A stretch of DNA of 63,355 nt, counting the filler, from Rhabdomonas costata (taxonomy: Eukaryota), in assembly GCA_019059605.1 (NCBI GenBank). It is 24 parts of 24 records of this genome, joined end to end, with 100 filler letters (N's around TTAATTAATTAA, not from the genome) between each part and the next. Parts side by side here need not be neighbours in the genome. Positions count along the whole stretch, not along the records: positions 60,816 to 63,355 come from JAHMHO010002948.1; 23 more parts are not named here. One strand, written 5' to 3'. The translations under genes and the position numbers were made by a program. Position 1 is the first letter of the stretch. The number at the start of each line of letters is the position of its first letter. Positions 53,894-63,355 of the stretch are shown here, piece by piece. The notes below the pieces were generated by a model. It made no database searches. It saw only the letters and a program-made list of their open reading frames with translations, and was not told the origin of the DNA.

Positions 53894-56047
53894 CTGCGGG
53901 GTCATTGCAGGCGAAGGCACTGTTGGATGGAGAACAGGAGGGGATACGACTTCGTTGAAAGCATTTCTTCGTGGCATGTTGCATCGGTTGCTTCTACTGC
54001 CTTCAAGCGTCAGATCGAGCTCACCAAAGTTCTAGGTTTGCTCTACTGACGAAGGACGATGTGCTGAAGAAGCACCACGAGCTGCTCGCTGCGTGCGCAG
54101 TCAAAGTTCCAAAGTTCAGGGATGGCAGTCTCAGTGAGCTGAGGGGGGCGGGACCCCTGTGCCCGCACAAAGCCAAAACGTTCTTCCACGGCCGAAGGCA
54201 CAGCAAAGAAGGGGGGAGGGAACCCCGACACCCTGGTGTGCGAAAGTTTCTGTTTTTGCCTTTCCTTTCAACTGCACAAAAGTTCCCGTTTGTCTGTCCG
54301 CTCTTCCCATGCAGTGCGTTGGCCTGGAGGCAGCACAGCCCAGTGCTGGAAACGTTTGGCACCCCGCTGTGTGTCCTCGTGGTCCTTGTCCCTTGCATCC
54401 CCCTCCCTACCCTGGCTTCGCCACGCCGAACGCTCTGATCGACGCAGCTTGCGGCTGACCCCCGGCACTCCTCCCTTTCTCACCATCCTCGCCGCTCTTC
54501 TCCTCTGGGCGGTCGATGAGCACTACCTTCCCGTCATCTATTCTTTTACGAAAATGAAATTAAATTTTGTGCCTTACCTTCCGTTGCCTTTTCCTGGTCG
54601 CCGGGAAACGAAAGTTTCCGAAAAGGAAACCTGATATTATCTCGAAAAAGCATCTTCACTCGGCATAAATCGGAGGAAATAGTAATCAAAAAGGAAAACT
54701 TCGAAATACCTGGTCCATCCAGTGAACGCCGCGGGACAGCAGTCATCGTCCCAACTCACCCCGGCTGCTCAAAACTAGACTTGTGGTCCACAAAAACAGC
54801 TGCCCAACAGAGCTCTGGGGTGGGCAAAGCTTGGGTAAAGAGTGGAATGAGGAACTTTTTCTTGAGGAACTCCGCGCTTTCAAGTAAAGCAGTGTATTTT
54901 CCAGAGACCGTTGGCAAAACGGCTGGAAGCATTGGGCAACCTTTCAGAAATGGGATTTGTTTGATTTCAAAAACACAGGACCCCCACACACACAGAAACA
55001 TGCGGGGTCTGGTTTTGAATGAGATGCATACCATCTTTTCCACGAGTTCACCAAATCCGTACAACGTGACACAGAGGGAGCCAAAAAGATCCTGCAGAAA
55101 AGTAGACAAAAGGAAATCTAAGCACACGAAATGGAACTAGAAGAGCACTAGCTGCAGCTGGCTGGTGATTTCCTCACCCTGCACTTCAGTGCGCATCGAA
55201 GCGGCTACCGCAACGCGCCGCCCATGAATGCCAGGAAAGTGTCATCTGCGGCAGACCCTAAAAATTGTATTTCAATGTAACCAAGGAAGTGCAATTTATC
55301 TGGCATTTGAACAACGGCAGAATTCAAAAGCAAAGACTGGCTCTCCTAACGGGTTAATTCAGTATTAGACATCGTCCAAAGGCAAAGTGGAAACACGAGA
55401 GTAACCACCAGTCGTAAGGAAATAGCGGTCGNNNNNNNNNNNNNNNNNNNNNNNNNNNNNNNNNNNNNNNNNNNNTTAATTAATTAANNNNNNNNNNNNN
55501 NNNNNNNNNNNNNNNNNNNNNNNNNNNNNNNTTGTGGTTTTATTCATCATCATCAGCCCCACTCTTTGCACCCGTCGAAGGCCTTTTCAACGGGTTTCGT
55601 TCACATGCAAATCCGCCAGGACAATAAACAGAAAATGCATTGATGAGCGAAAAATGATAATACTGATGATGATGAATAAAACCACGAGGAACGAAGATGC
55701 TACAAAAAGCTCATGGGAACCGCAATGAGAAGTAGCTTTGCTGCAATGTTGTCATGCGCAGGTCTGTTTCTACTGAAGACGTCCCCTTTTGCATTTTGTT
55801 TCGGGTGAGACGAAAGAGCAACCACTGTAGAATAGGATGGAGTGAGAGAGGGGGAACGGGGACGGTGCGGTTGTGTTGGAACGTGATAGGATGCAGCAAC
55901 CGCGCATGAGTAGAGCTCTCACGGACACAATCTATGCACTGACAGGGCTCGGGAAAAAGACGCAAGAGCACCGACAGAGAGCAAAGCTTCGGAGGAGGTA
56001 ACCGGGACCGGGACGTGGGGGTGGGGTCAGCGGGTTGGCAGGCGCAC

Positions 56048-57962
56048 CCGATCACCACGGCGCCTGTGCGGCTAACACCGGCCAGGCAGTGCACCATGAC
56101 CGTGCCCTGGGCGGCCAGGGCCTGGTCCAGGAACCAGAAGATCACCGGGAACTGCGACACGATGCCGTGCTTCTCGGAGTCCTCGACGTCCATGTACATC
56201 ACCTTCAGCCCAGGGATGTCGTCCAGCCTCTCGCCCAGGCTGCGAACCCGCGCACACATATAGTACAGTTGGCCCATAGAATCATTTACTTGGGGGTTTT
56301 CCTCGGGCGGCCTTTCGCTCGGCGTCTCGCCCACTAGGACGTATTGTGGACGTCCGAGACGCAGAACACCGATCGGACAAGTCAATGCCACGAATGCGAT
56401 GAACGGAGAAAAAAATCAAAGGCCAGAAAAACGCCAGCAGGGTTTTTGGGAGGTGCGAATCGTTCCCTTCGCCCAACCTGGACATGGCCGCATACACCGC
56501 CGCCAGGTGTGCGTACTTCATACCTCGCTGAAACAAACATCACAAAGGACACCCTCCATCATCAAAACATTCAGCACACAAGCACACAGGTCATTCACCT
56601 CAGGACGTGAGTGATGCCGTGCTTCTTGAGGAGCTCGACGTCCACCTTGTTCTCGCACTTGTGGGCACCGGACAGGCTTTTCAGGCTGTAGCACCGCAAG
56701 AAGTTTGGAGAACGCGACTTTTGACGCAAAGGATTCCGTGCTCACTCCAGGGTCTAAAGTTGGCTAAGATATGCGCAAACCCTTCAATCTGGCAAATGCA
56801 TCACGAGGGGAGAGTTCACAGATAAATGTGGAGTGCATCTCGATCTACAGGGAACGCGATAATCGGCAACGGTGCGGCGTACGGAGGACTAGGTAGGAAA
56901 AAAACCAAGCTTCGCCTGGAATTGATTAGAGTGGTGCGGTTTTCGTCAATATGACGGACCTCGCAAGAGAATAAGAACCTAATGAATCGCGGACAAAGCA
57001 TCAATGAAAGCCAAAGGGCTTGCATTCACTTCACGGGAAGCGCCTGACAAGACAATAAATATCCTGTATATGTCGAAAATTGCGGGTGGCATGAGGACAA
57101 AAGCTTTCCGCTGGGTGCACTTACCCAAGCCCTAGCGTAAGAGCCCCATCGTTCTTCATCGGGGAGCCTACACCTAAGCCAGCCTGAGATTAGAGCACAG
57201 GAGAACTTCATTGAAGTCCTCAGGCGGAATGCCCCCCCCCCAGCTCCGCAAGCCAGGGGGGCTGCGTGGGTGTGTTGGGTGCAAAGCGCATTGGCGGTTG
57301 CCTAATTGACTTGTGGTGACCACTGTGGAATGGCGAGCGCACGCGGGCTGTTGGCACAGGGGTTGTTCGCGAGAGCTAACATTGGAGCGACGCGGTTGGG
57401 AACCGGATCCCCGCCAAACGTTCCACGCGCGGTAACCTGAATTCTGCCCCACGGGTCTCGGGCCTTTGTCAAAATGATGTTTCGCCAATTTTGGTTTAGT
57501 CGCACAAAACATGCGCGATTTATCGCGCTTATTCTCACAATGATAAAAAATCAATCATATTGATCAACAGTACAAAGTGGTTATAGTAGTTTGTAAATCT
57601 GTTTGGTTAGCATGCATGCAAAAAGAAGTTTCCGAAAGGTAACCGCTCCTTTTTCCAATGGATTCCCGCGCTGCTCGTGTGTCTGAGGCTCCAAGTCTGC
57701 GCGGGTGTGTTCGCTCGCGAAACCTGCCGCAGTACAGGTGCGGCAGGATCTTGCTGAAGACCATGTCCTTGTACGGCGTGGAGAAGCTGTTGCGGCTGGT
57801 GAAGCCCGAAACTCGCGACAGCAGCTCCGTGGGGTGGAAGCACTGCACCAGCTCGCTGACCTCGATCAGCGCCTCCGGTGGGCTGACCCCCCGCACCTGA
57901 TGCAGGTACAGCGCCGCCACAGCGGGGGCTCGGGCGATGCACAGCTCGCACAGCACGGCGAC
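56048..57962 (-). CDS. Dual-specificity protein phosphatase with tandem DSP domains, partial
   Basis: Exons 57962-57724, 56685-56599 and 56239-56048 are in phase: ILPHLYCGS, LKKHGITHVLS, VMVHCLAGVSRTGAVVIG. These are preceded by a divergent DSP-like end (VLCELCIARAPAVAALYL). Confidence 0.92.
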
Positions 57963-60588: not shown

Positions 60589-60715
60589 CTGTACTGTACT
60601 GTACTGTACTGTACTGTACTGTACTGTACTGTACTGTACTGTACTGTACTGTACTGTACTGTACTGTACTGTACTGTACTGTACTGTACTGTACTGTACT
60701 GTACTGTACTGTACT
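60589..60715 (+). repeat. (CTGTA)n pentanucleotide microsatellite
   Basis: About 25 perfect units, in the same orientation as the array at 58174, truncated at the contig end. Confidence 0.98.
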
Positions 60716-60815
60716 NNNNNNNNNNNNNNNNNNNNNNNNNNNNNNNNNNNNNNNNNNNNTTAATTAATTAANNNNNNNNNNNNNNNNNNNNNNNNNNNNN
60801 NNNNNNNNNNNNNNN

Positions 60816-63355
60816 GTGGGGGTGGGGAGGGTGGATGACTTGTTTCAGCTTCTCTCTGAAGAGAGTGTGAGACAGCCAAGCCAGCCAGGGGTCCCCGCTG
60901 GCAGCGAGGGCAGGCAGTCTCCCCTTCACTACGCTGCATATCGCGGGCAGACGGAATGTGTAGAAGCCATTGTGAAGTTTTATTCTTCTCGCTTCCAAAA
61001 CTTCACGACGTATCTTGAAGCTGGCGATGAGAACGGGCTGACACCACTGCAGCTCGCTGTGCTTGCCCGCCAGGACTCTACCGCGGCTGCTCTTGTGCGT
61101 CTTGGCGCCAACCCCCGCGCCACCGCGCCACCGAAAGGTCGCAACGTGCTCTTTCTGGCGTGTTTGTATGGAATGTGTGAGACTGTGCGGGCACTGCCGG
61201 CGTCAGAGCTCGCAGAGCTTGCGCGCACTACGGATACGTCGGGCTACACTGCTCTGCATGCATGCTGCCTAGCAGAAAACGTGCTTTTGGCTGAGCTGCT
61301 GCTGGAAAGGGCTGCAGTTGAAGTTGGTGCCGTGGCTCGTGACGGCTCCACGCCTCTGCACACGGCCGCACGGAAGGGTAACGGGACACTGATTCGAGTG
61401 CTGCTGAGCAACGGGGCACAACTGACACGGTGTCGGTTTGGCTGCTCTCCCTTGCATGTGGCCTGTATCCATGCCGGGCCTGCCGCAGTAGCAGAGCTGG
61501 TGCGGGTGTTCCCCATCGCCGAGTTGGTTGCCCAGGACCACGATGGGACTCACCCTACCCATGCGGTCGCATCGGCCTTGGCTGTGTATTATGACCGCGA
61601 AAAGAGCAGAAATGCTACAAACGACGAAAAGCTCGGTGACGAGAAAACTGCTGAAAACTTGCTTCGATGCCTGCAGTTGTTAGTCGAAGCAGGGTATTGT
61701 GCTTTTTTTGTGAGTACTGAACAGTGTTTCACACAGGCTCTAGGCGCGCAATGCATTCTGGATCGACTTCCCTTACGTGTTGATCCGAAGTAACCGCATA
61801 ACAGCGATGCGAATTTGCAATGGTAAACACCTGCGGCGTTTTCTGTGTGGTTCTTTTGCTCCATCATTTGCACATTCGGCACCCGCAGGTATCCCTTGGA
61901 TTCCACCGACTACAGTGACTCCACGGTGCTATATGTTTTGTGTTGGCGACCGCACGAGCACCAGCGCCGCGCCATTGCCTTCATTTTGGATTATCTCATT
62001 GATCACCAGCAGTTTGCCGACCTGGCCCGCTTACTGCGCCTTCGGGCAGAGTGTGTTCTGTTTAAATCTGATTTTGTGGCAACTGCTAATGCTCGCTCAT
62101 TCTCAATTATGAAGTGCGCCAGCCCTTGTGCGTAGTTTCTTTTTGCTTTATATCACCTGTTGGCACACGGGGAGCCCTGCCAGGGTTGAGGACCAGCAAG
62201 ATTCACATCACCTGCGAAAGCTGCAAACCAAAGCTTTATGTCAGACTCACGTTTGGACTTTCACACTTTTTGCATTTAACCCTTCTGTGAGAGAAGGATT
62301 AGGTTCTAGCTGATTTGATCCAGCGTTTTTAACAGGCCTTTCTGGCTTCTGTTGCTCAGCAGCGGCTGGACGTGCCTGCATGCAGCCAAGCAGATGCTCG
62401 GGCCAGCGAGCGACGCCGTGTTAAGCACGCTGATGCAAGTCGCTTCCCATTACGCCCCAGACCTGTGCACTTTGGATCTTTGTGTGCCTCGGGATATCTC
62501 GAACAAGGTGTATCTTGCACGACGGGGTGCCCATAACTGCGTTCCTGAGCTGGACCGCCGGGAGGTTCTTCAGGGTATCCATGACCTCGCTGGAGTGGCG
62601 GCAAAACTGCATAAGGTTGCTTCAGGCGGTCGCAGTCCTCGGATTGTGGCACTGTGCGGGGCTGGGATGTCAACCAGTGCGGGAATCCGAGACTTCCGCA
62701 GTACCACTGGGCTGTATTCGGATACCAGCCTTCGCCAAGTGTTCAATGTGGACGCTCTTCAGGACCACCCAGAATTGTTCTACAAGGCCCTGTTGCAAGA
62801 GTTCAAGCCCACTCTCACTCGGCGCCCTCGGCCCACTCTTGCGCATGCGCTGCTACGGGTGCTTCAGGACCGCGGTTGGCTCGCTCGGGTGTACACACAA
62901 AATGTTGATGGCCTGGAACGGGCTGCGGGCATATTGGGGGATCGCATCGTCGAGTGCCATGGCAGCCTTTTTCGCCTAGCCTGCGTGAGCTGTCACTCCC
63001 GCGTGGACAGCGTGGCTGCCGTATCCGCATTTTGGACCGCGGTTAGAGACGATCCTGGGCATCCTCCTGTATGCCCCTCCTGTGGAAAAGGCGCGCTACG
63101 CACTGACATCGTATTGTTTGGGGAGCCTCTCCCTGCTCGATTCCATGAGCTCTCACACAGGGACGTGGCGGACTGCGACCTTTTGCTAGTGCTGGGGACA
63201 ACTCTTGTTGTGTACCCGGTTGCCTCACTGCCCTCGTACGTGTCTCCAACTGCTGTCCGCTTGTTGATCAACCGCCAACCTACTGGGTGCTTCCAAGGTC
63301 TCCCCCCATGCAATTTCACTGTGGGACCTCACCTGATTAGGACTTCCCACCCAAC
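60816..63355 (+). CDS. Ankyrin-repeat / class I sirtuin (Sir2 NAD+-dependent deacylase) fusion protein, partial
   Basis: Exons 60816-61693, 61889-62050 and 62360-63355 are in phase. Ankyrin motifs: SPLHYAA, TPLQLAV, TALHACC, TPLHTAA, SPLHVAC, GWTCLHAA. Sirtuin motifs from 62643: GAGMSTSAGIRDFRS, YTQNVDGLE, ECHGS, CVSC/CPSC, DIVLFGE, GTTLVVYPVA, LINR. Confidence 0.92.

Follow-up and report, generated by a model that had tools for sequence, protein, structure and literature searches.

A truncated ankyrin-repeat/class I sirtuin gene from a Rhabdomonas costata assembly belongs to a widespread and apparently undescribed protist family

Sirtuins are usually portrayed as bare catalytic cores whose substrates are reached via separate partners, and those of class I are primarily deacylases. 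Here we analyze a predicted fusion of an ankyrin-repeat array to a sirtuin (Ank-SIR2), encoded at the end of a 63,355-nt stretch of DNA (hereafter, the window) from the Rhabdomonas costata genome assembly GCA_019059605.1. Several described systems resemble this gene in part. One study of sirtuins catalogues CAP-C and DUF592 as additional domains, along with a few fusions represented by one sequence each (PMC9486876); the word ankyrin is absent from the text of that paper, although its supplementary table of extra sirtuin domains might mention it. The SIR8 proteins of early-branching animals (CAP-C plus Sir2), as presented there, are similar to the window gene in that a lineage-specific domain precedes a standard sirtuin core, but they differ in the accessory domain (CAP-C), in the sirtuin class and in the taxa concerned (PMC9486876). 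In algae and heterokonts, class II HDA deacetylases bear an N-terminal ankyrin domain proposed to be an interaction platform, whereas the SRT (sirtuin) deacetylases of photosynthetic eukaryotes are described in the same study as bare catalytic subunits (PMC5499015). The HDA proteins thus share with the window gene the position of the ankyrin domain N-terminal to a deacetylase, but their catalytic domain is an unrelated, zinc-dependent histone deacetylase, and the statement on bare SRT proteins (PMC5499015) is contradicted for other protists by the Ank-SIR2 family. Finally, SIRim-NACHT-repeat proteins also combine a SIR2-superfamily domain with ankyrin repeats in one polypeptide; unlike in the window gene, the SIRim domain is N-terminal, the NTPase (nucleoside triphosphatase) central and the repeats C-terminal, and the SIR2 domain comes from a different branch (bioRxiv 10.1101/2024.09.18.613514).

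The catalytic domain itself is most readily compared with human SIRT2 and SIRT3 (PDB 6l65, 4y6q, 3glr), with which it shares the Rossmann fold, the zinc ribbon and the GAGxS, QNxD, catalytic His, CxxC...CxxC and FGE signatures. Unlike the window gene, SIRT2 and SIRT3 have neither an ankyrin array nor an RRGxHNRIP-type linker and keep the Pro of the GIPDFR motif; unlike some members of the Ank-SIR2 family, they carry no membrane anchor. The entire arrangement is found in the homologues P0003, P0004, P0005, P0025 and P0021, which have a nine-repeat ankyrin array followed by the linker and SIR2 in the same order, contain the linker motif and fall into the same clade as the window gene on both trees described below. 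The differences between such P0003-type relatives and the window gene are that the latter is deprived of both termini by the contig ends and has Arg where the nearest relatives have Lys in the cofactor loop. In the full-text literature, we found no paper on a protein combining N-terminal ankyrin repeats with a class I sirtuin, supplements, which might list the architecture, being outside the scope of that search. Family members are labeled in databases as "sirtuin 2" or "Deacetylase sirtuin-type domain-containing protein"; the Ank-SIR2 architecture is visible in databases yet apparently neither described nor characterized in the literature.

We consider it probable that the window carries an internal fragment, 678 codons long, of an ankyrin-repeat/class I sirtuin fusion that would function as an NAD+-dependent deacylase with an ankyrin selection module. 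The gene occupies the entire last piece of the window, 60816–63355 (2540 bp, plus strand), and is truncated at both ends. When six full-length homologues were compared with the whole window by tblastn, all six matched this last contig piece only, in collinear order; a search for the missing ends of the gene elsewhere in the window, with the same six sequences, gave no match outside 60882–63335. The coding sequence is distributed over two plus-strand open frames, 60768–61793 (real sequence from 60816, after the N run) and 62319–63353 (open at the window end), and the resulting model consists of three collinear exons separated by two GT-AG introns, yielding a spliced sequence of 678 codons with 0 stops (Table 1). 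An AG at 60828–60829 is a possible acceptor, so that the first 4–5 codons of exon A may be intron. Alignment of P0003 covers the model in three consecutive segments, with residues 87–355 on 60906–61697 (45% identity, E = 1.65e-59), residues 355–408 on 61890–62051 and residues 409–729 on 62361–63326 (57.6% identity, E = 3.8e-108). The short exon B is matched by four of the six full-length homologues, over 61890–62051 or 61890–61997, collinearly with the flanking matches.

Both splice junctions are well defined by homology. At intron 1 (donor agg/GTATTGTG, acceptor ..CCGCAG/g), the homologues run EAG-YP(V/L)D unbroken across the junction; two alternative donors, GTGAGT at 61710 and GTAACC at 61790, were dropped because the homologues keep EAG-YPxD across 61693/61889. 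At intron 2 (donor aga/GTGTGTTC, acceptor ..TTGCTCAG/c), splicing restores the sequence A-D-S-G-W-T-C, which is common to P0003. Over 676 alignment columns, the spliced model shares 49.4% identity with P0003, and its identity to P0004 and P0005 amounts to 45.1% and 37.6%, respectively; across P0003-type proteins, identity to the window ranges from 34 to 49% over 661–763 columns, always collinearly. The G+C content (GC) of the exons is 0.59 (0.61 at third codon positions) and that of the introns 0.46. Since the homologues align in order over the two junctions and the linker, the sirtuin and its ankyrin array are parts of a single gene. The original prediction, made from the sequence alone, had placed the last ankyrin motif and the sirtuin in one unbroken exon extending from 62360 to the window end, and this was confirmed. 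It had further called the sirtuin apparently intact: the catalytic motifs are indeed present, but since the contig ends cut both termini, the description holds only for the 678 visible codons. Relative to P0003, approximately 60 N-terminal and 80 C-terminal residues fall off the contig, the latter including the final strand and helix of the Rossmann fold (YRDV..GxCD; P0003 residues 777–808).

Table 1. Coordinates of the Ank-SIR2 gene, its domains and motifs, and the preceding joiner (positions count along the window)
Feature	Coordinates	Strand	Remarks
Artificial contig joiner N44-TTAATTAATTAA-N44	60716..60815	.	Marks the 5' end of the gene-bearing 2540-bp piece
Exon A	60816..61693	+	5' open; ankyrin repeats 1–7; Pfam Ank_2, E = 3.1e-28; tblastn match to P0003
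Intron 1	61694..61888	+	195 nt, GT..AG; codon split after base 2
Exon B	61889..62050	+	54 codons; ankyrin-like repeat 8 (DYSDSTVLYVLCW...)
Intron 2	62051..62359	+	309 nt, GT..AG; codon split after base 2
Exon C	62360..63355	+	3' open; last ankyrin repeat, conserved linker and SIR2 domain
Last ankyrin motif SGWTCLHAA	62361..62387	+	Family consensus here GWTxLHxA
Linker motif RRGAHNCVP	62520..62546	+	Family consensus RxGxHNRIP; between last ankyrin repeat and sirtuin core
SIR2 catalytic domain (PF02146)	62658..63218	+	Pfam E = 1.3e-44, profile 1–180 of 180
NAD-binding motif GAGMSTSAGIRDFRS	62658..62702	+	Pro of GIPDFR is Arg (GIRDFR)
TQNVD catalytic motif	62895..62909	+	
ECHG with catalytic His	62952..62963	+	
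Zinc-ribbon CVSC and CPSC	62982..62993 and 63072..63083	+	Aligned to the SIRT2 zinc module

The SIR2 profile is covered in its entirety by the second open frame, with a score of 152.7 bits against a Pfam cut-off of 24, and the predicted combination of domains is thus confirmed well above any chance level. In an alignment of 54 sequences (A2), G114, A115, G116, S118, R127, Q194, N195 and H214 are invariant, as are the zinc cysteines C222 and C252, whereas C225 and C255 reach a conservation of 90% or more. The window gene retains GAGxS, the cofactor-loop Phe and Arg, QN(V)D, the catalytic His, the four zinc cysteines, FGE and the Asn of LIN, and the NAD-binding motif, the His of ECHG and the four zinc cysteines reported in the original prediction were all located (Table 1). 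Among the matches listed, the closest solved sequences are SIRT2 (E = 1.7e-40), Leishmania Sir2rp1, SIRT3, yeast Sir2, SIRT1, Thermotoga Sir2 and Hst2. Consistently, the top Foldseek matches of the structural model of the exon C product are SIRT3 and SIRT2, with a target-normalized TM-score (TMt) of 0.67–0.72, a root-mean-square deviation of 2.1–3.5 Å and 36–39% identity; the individual values of TMt are 0.70 for SIRT3 (3glr) and 0.72 for SIRT2 (4y6q). The proposed class I affiliation (SIRT2/SIRT3 type) thus stands, in that SIRT2 and SIRT3 are the nearest solved relatives in both sequence and fold. The sirtuin is a class I enzyme with the catalytic residues in place, the class being assigned from the nearest solved relatives rather than from a tree with named class II–IV references.

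Upstream of the sirtuin, exon A was matched by Ank_2 with 98.6 bits (cut-off 27.3) and by Ank with an E-value of 1.6e-23. Approximately nine ankyrin-type motifs can be read in the gene, namely seven in exon A (six of which fit a simple pattern, the seventh being assigned by eye), an eighth in exon B and a ninth opening exon C, which accommodates the earlier count of at least six clear motifs before the sirtuin. The segment between the last repeat and the sirtuin core is itself a hallmark of the family: ahead of the SIR2 core, 42 of 78 Ank-SIR2 rows match the pattern [RK]xGx[HQWY][NHQ]x[IVL][PA], as do 5 of the 22 short rows of the same clade, but none of 100 sirtuins outside that clade. The AlphaFold2 model of full-length P0003 (809 residues, based on a 51-sequence alignment) reached a predicted local distance difference test score (pLDDT) of 89.7 and a predicted TM-score (pTM) of 0.85, with the linker ordered; it displays nine helix pairs within residues 89–439, in agreement with the nine ankyrin units read in the window. 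The exon C product was modeled with a pLDDT of 90.9 and a pTM of 0.83. The high pTM of the full-length P0003 model suggests that the ankyrin array and the sirtuin may be docked to each other rather than loosely tethered.

We exhaustively searched 1.84 billion cluster representatives (50%-identity protein clusters) with HMMER, which returned 13,177 matches at E ≤ 0.001 and 634 at E ≤ 1e-30. Pfam analysis identified Ank plus SIR2 in 59 of the 150 best representatives (45 of the first 80 and 14 of the remaining 70) and in 28 of 35 longer homologues. Because of these counts, the architecture, which the original prediction had implied to be rare, proves to be common. Members with a name or a transcript origin include P0025 of Alexandrium monilatum (a dinoflagellate), P0021 of Rhodomonas from MMETSP (a cryptophyte) and two EukProt transcripts; the transcript-derived members are single open reading frames (ORFs), which means that the fusion is expressed in one piece in these relatives. 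As judged from these homologues, the fusion is genuine and not a one-off.

Phylogenetic analysis of 201 SIR2 domains (FastTree, midpoint rooting) placed all 79 rows with ankyrin repeats, including the window, within one clade of 101 rows with a support of 98, and this clade excludes the named SIRT2- and SIRT3-type sequences that stand alone. The remaining 22 rows of the clade are all ≤521 amino acids (aa) long and mostly begin at or near SIR2, as fragments would. One such case is illustrative: P0177 (SIR2 only, 59% identical to the window) and P0323 (ankyrin only, 56% identical to P0003; JGI) are both listed as coming from an 11008-bp contig, which suggests a single Ank-SIR2 gene split by the gene caller and agrees with reading the SIR2-only rows of the clade as fragments. 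A quick IQ-TREE analysis with 86 rows separated the 40 outside rows from all others at a branch with an SH-aLRT support of 98 and placed the window in a 17-row clade with a support of 100. It should be noted that the two trees are not fully independent, because the outside rows for IQ-TREE were picked from the FastTree result. A single origin of the Ank-SIR2 fusion appears to be the simplest reading of these trees.

The replacement of Pro by Arg in the GIPDFR motif, pointed out in the original prediction, is real, but it is not singular. Within the Ank clade (n = 101), this position is occupied by Pro in 73 rows, Lys in 19, Ala in 4, Gln in 3 and Arg in 2; outside the clade (n = 100), it is Pro in 93 rows and Arg in 2, with 5 unmatched. 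The substitutions are concentrated in the 31-row subclade containing the window, where Lys (19), Gln (3) and Arg (1, the window itself) are found alongside Pro (8). On the evidence of the alignment, GIRDFR is a trait of the subclade under retention and not a private defect.

Two further traits are distributed unevenly in the family. Using as criterion a 19-residue stretch with a mean Kyte-Doolittle value of at least 1.8 within the first 100 residues, we detected an N-terminal hydrophobic segment in 15 of 64 full-length-like members versus 1 of 94 sirtuins outside the family. The three closest full-length relatives of the window gene score 2.43, 2.17 and 1.71, and P0003 and P0005 are counted as having the segment. 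In addition, three members, P0016, P0018 and P0024, carry an ADP_ribosyl_GH domain ahead of Ank-SIR2 (E = 1.4e-46 to 2.8e-48). The hydrolase of P0024 is nearest to entries for ADP-ribosyl-(dinitrogen reductase) hydrolase/ADP-ribosylglycohydrolase (6dre, 1e-29; 2cwc, 4.7e-23; 2woe, 1.5e-16) and further from ARH3 (approximately 1e-10 to 1e-11). Inspected by eye, P0024 also shows two hydrophobic stretches in the region that separates its hydrolase from its ankyrin repeats.

Taken together, these features outline the most likely mode of action. As a sirtuin of the SIRT2/SIRT3 type, the C-terminal domain would actively remove acyl groups from protein lysines in an NAD+-dependent manner, and the nine-repeat ankyrin solenoid, joined to it via the structured RRGxHNRIP-type linker, would serve as a built-in module for selecting partners or substrates, or for holding the enzyme at a site. 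It is a reasonable inference that the ankyrin array acts as a targeting module. In the closest full-length relatives, the N-terminal hydrophobic segment would anchor the enzyme to a membrane; for the window protein, whose N-terminus is off the contig and whose tethering can for this reason only be extrapolated from its relatives, such anchoring is plausible at the level of the subclade. Several observations weigh against this interpretation. The N-terminus and the last Rossmann strand and helix fall beyond the contig, which confines the evidence for an intact gene to the 678 codons. The near-universal Pro of GIPDFR is Arg here, so that the handling of NAD+ could differ. The hydrophobic segment is clear in only 15 of the 64 members (27 of 64 if the threshold is lowered to 1.6), and tethering is thus not family-wide. 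Finally, the DraG-like hydrolase of three relatives is no less compatible with an ADP-ribosylation cycle than with simple deacetylation. With DraG-like hydrolases fused in certain lineages and the cofactor-loop Pro lost from the subclade of the window, one might envisage a protist-wide, often membrane-tethered class of Ank-SIR2 proteins in which the docked solenoid and linker gate or present substrates in a reversible ADP-ribosylation/deacylation cycle at membranes, rather than in ordinary histone or tubulin deacetylation; we regard this broader scheme as speculative and unlikely to hold as a whole.

Which reaction the sirtuin catalyzes is the point at which other explanations of the architecture diverge from a deacylase with an ankyrin selection module. 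The enzyme could operate mainly in an ADP-ribosylation cycle, either by transferring ADP-ribose to proteins or by generating O-acyl-ADP-ribose as a signal, with the ankyrin repeats selecting the target. Such a role would be in keeping with the hydrolase fused before Ank-SIR2 in P0016, P0018 and P0024, with the proximity of the P0024 domain to DraG-type entries rather than to the more distant ARH3, and with the change of the cofactor-loop Pro to Lys, Gln or Arg in the subclade of the window. Nevertheless, the hydrolase domain is present in only 3 of the 35 longer homologues and is not found on the contig of the window gene, and the core is that of a canonical class I enzyme, complete with zinc ribbon, FGE substrate strand and catalytic His, a class active primarily in deacylation; we therefore hold a predominant role in ADP-ribosylation to be improbable. 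Given that fusions of SIR2 to repeat sensors do occur, and that the family is expanded and divergent among protists, the protein might alternatively be viewed as an NAD+-depleting effector of immunity or biological conflict, comparable to prokaryotic SIR2 defence systems or eukaryotic SIRim-NLR proteins, with the ankyrin repeats as the sensor. This is extremely unlikely, because the domain order is reversed (ankyrin repeats N-terminal, SIR2 C-terminal), none of the 150 representatives scanned contains a NACHT, NB-ARC or other NTPase domain, and all 60 PDB matches listed are true sirtuins, headed by SIRT2 and SIRT3. The protein also keeps its zinc ribbon and the FGE strand that binds the peptide, and the window groups with SIRT2/3-like sequences, the rows with ankyrin repeats all belonging to one clade.

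Other alternatives concern the locus rather than the enzyme. The sequence lies on an unplaced 2.54-kb contig among the leftovers of the assembly, the gene is truncated at both ends, and no near-identical copy was found either in the protein collection (best match 58% identical) or in the metagenome collection searched with exon C (33 loci; best segment 52% identical), all of which might point to a chimeric assembly or to a dead copy of the gene, so that the fusion would not be a working gene in this organism. The chimeric join at 62400–62640 envisaged beforehand is nevertheless rejected, as all six full-length homologues align straight and collinearly through this interval, including the linker motif. 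Together with the stop-free codons, the GT-AG introns at the phases predicted by homology, the higher GC of exons relative to introns and the high pLDDT of the exon C product, this leaves an artifactual or decayed gene very unlikely. A separate matter, independent of function, is whether the contig comes from the same organism as most of the assembly or from a contaminant, prey or symbiont. Its location among unplaced short contigs, its being one of only two pieces of the window in which a recognizable protein domain was found, and its GC of 0.562, close to the highest value among the pieces (0.457–0.570), could be taken as hints of a foreign source. However, both this value and the observed/expected ratio of CpG (0.81; range 0.68–0.93) are inside the range of the other pieces, and no positive sign of foreign origin was found, so that we consider a different source organism rather unlikely, if less so than the alternatives above.

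With the deacylase fused to an ankyrin selection module as the favored interpretation, the window gene would be one truncated member of a large, widespread and apparently undescribed clade of Ank-SIR2 class I sirtuins of protists. Its hallmarks are the linker motif, membrane anchors and an ADP-ribosylhydrolase in some members, and an altered cofactor loop in the subclade of the window. If studied, the family could reveal the means by which a sirtuin is permanently committed to one target or cell compartment and could tie sirtuin chemistry to the removal of ADP-ribose in abundant marine protists. The value of the window alone is modest, for it offers an unplaced contig and no usable genomic context.

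Additional searches delineated the surroundings of the family. A viral contig scan with a second alignment (A1) yielded 23 loci, mostly in giant-virus genome bins (IMG/VR), which are SIRT2-like with 26–38% identity. The 12 of these 23 loci that were examined (L034–L045) comprise 11 stand-alone ORFs of 249–384 aa and one fragment of 52 aa, with a standard G(I/F)PDFR motif; a viral source of Ank-SIR2 is unsupported, with no ankyrin array upstream at these 12 loci. A profile search with A1 took its search words from the first 500 residues; its 96 matches at E ≤ 1e-30 are for this reason nearly all generic ankyrin proteins, such as TRPN channels and ankyrins, and are uninformative on the range of the family; a query of the ESM Atlas with P0003, which returned only generic ankyrin clusters (score 0.85), is equally uninformative. 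Other domain combinations were observed among sirtuins related to the window gene. A zf-UBP zinc finger precedes SIR2 in 5 of the 150 nearest representatives (P0105, P0108, P0131, P0132 and P0139), all outside the Ank clade. Tandem SIR2 pairs, with two Pfam stretches each, are present in P0084, P0086, P0093 and P0130, and in a 1123-aa protein of Symbiodinium sp. KB8 annotated as "SIRT3" (P0031), SIR2 is preceded by a NIT (nitrate/nitrite sensing) domain.

The remainder of the window bears on the gene only through its make-up. Positions 1–63355 represent 24 unrelated contig pieces, sorted by falling size from 2548 down to 2540 bp and separated by 23 identical joiners of the form N44-TTAATTAATTAA-N44. 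Base 60816 is the first after the last joiner, and the window ends at, or no more than approximately 2 bases from, the end of the 2540-bp contig. Because the gene is cut at both contig ends and the joined pieces are unrelated, it has no real neighbors in the window, and arguments from gene order or neighborhood are unsafe anywhere along these chained contigs. For the same reason, the remark in the original prediction that exons of ~0.9–1 kb are atypical here is void, the other pieces being unrelated contigs. A Pfam scan of 18 ORFs of at least 200 aa on the other pieces produced a single match, to DSPc (dual-specificity phosphatase; E = 1.3e-9), in an ORF fragment at 55714–56415 on the minus strand. 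Immediately upstream of the last joiner, a (TGTAC)n pentanucleotide microsatellite, at approximately 60590–60715, reaches the very end of piece 23 and probably accounts for the break of that contig.

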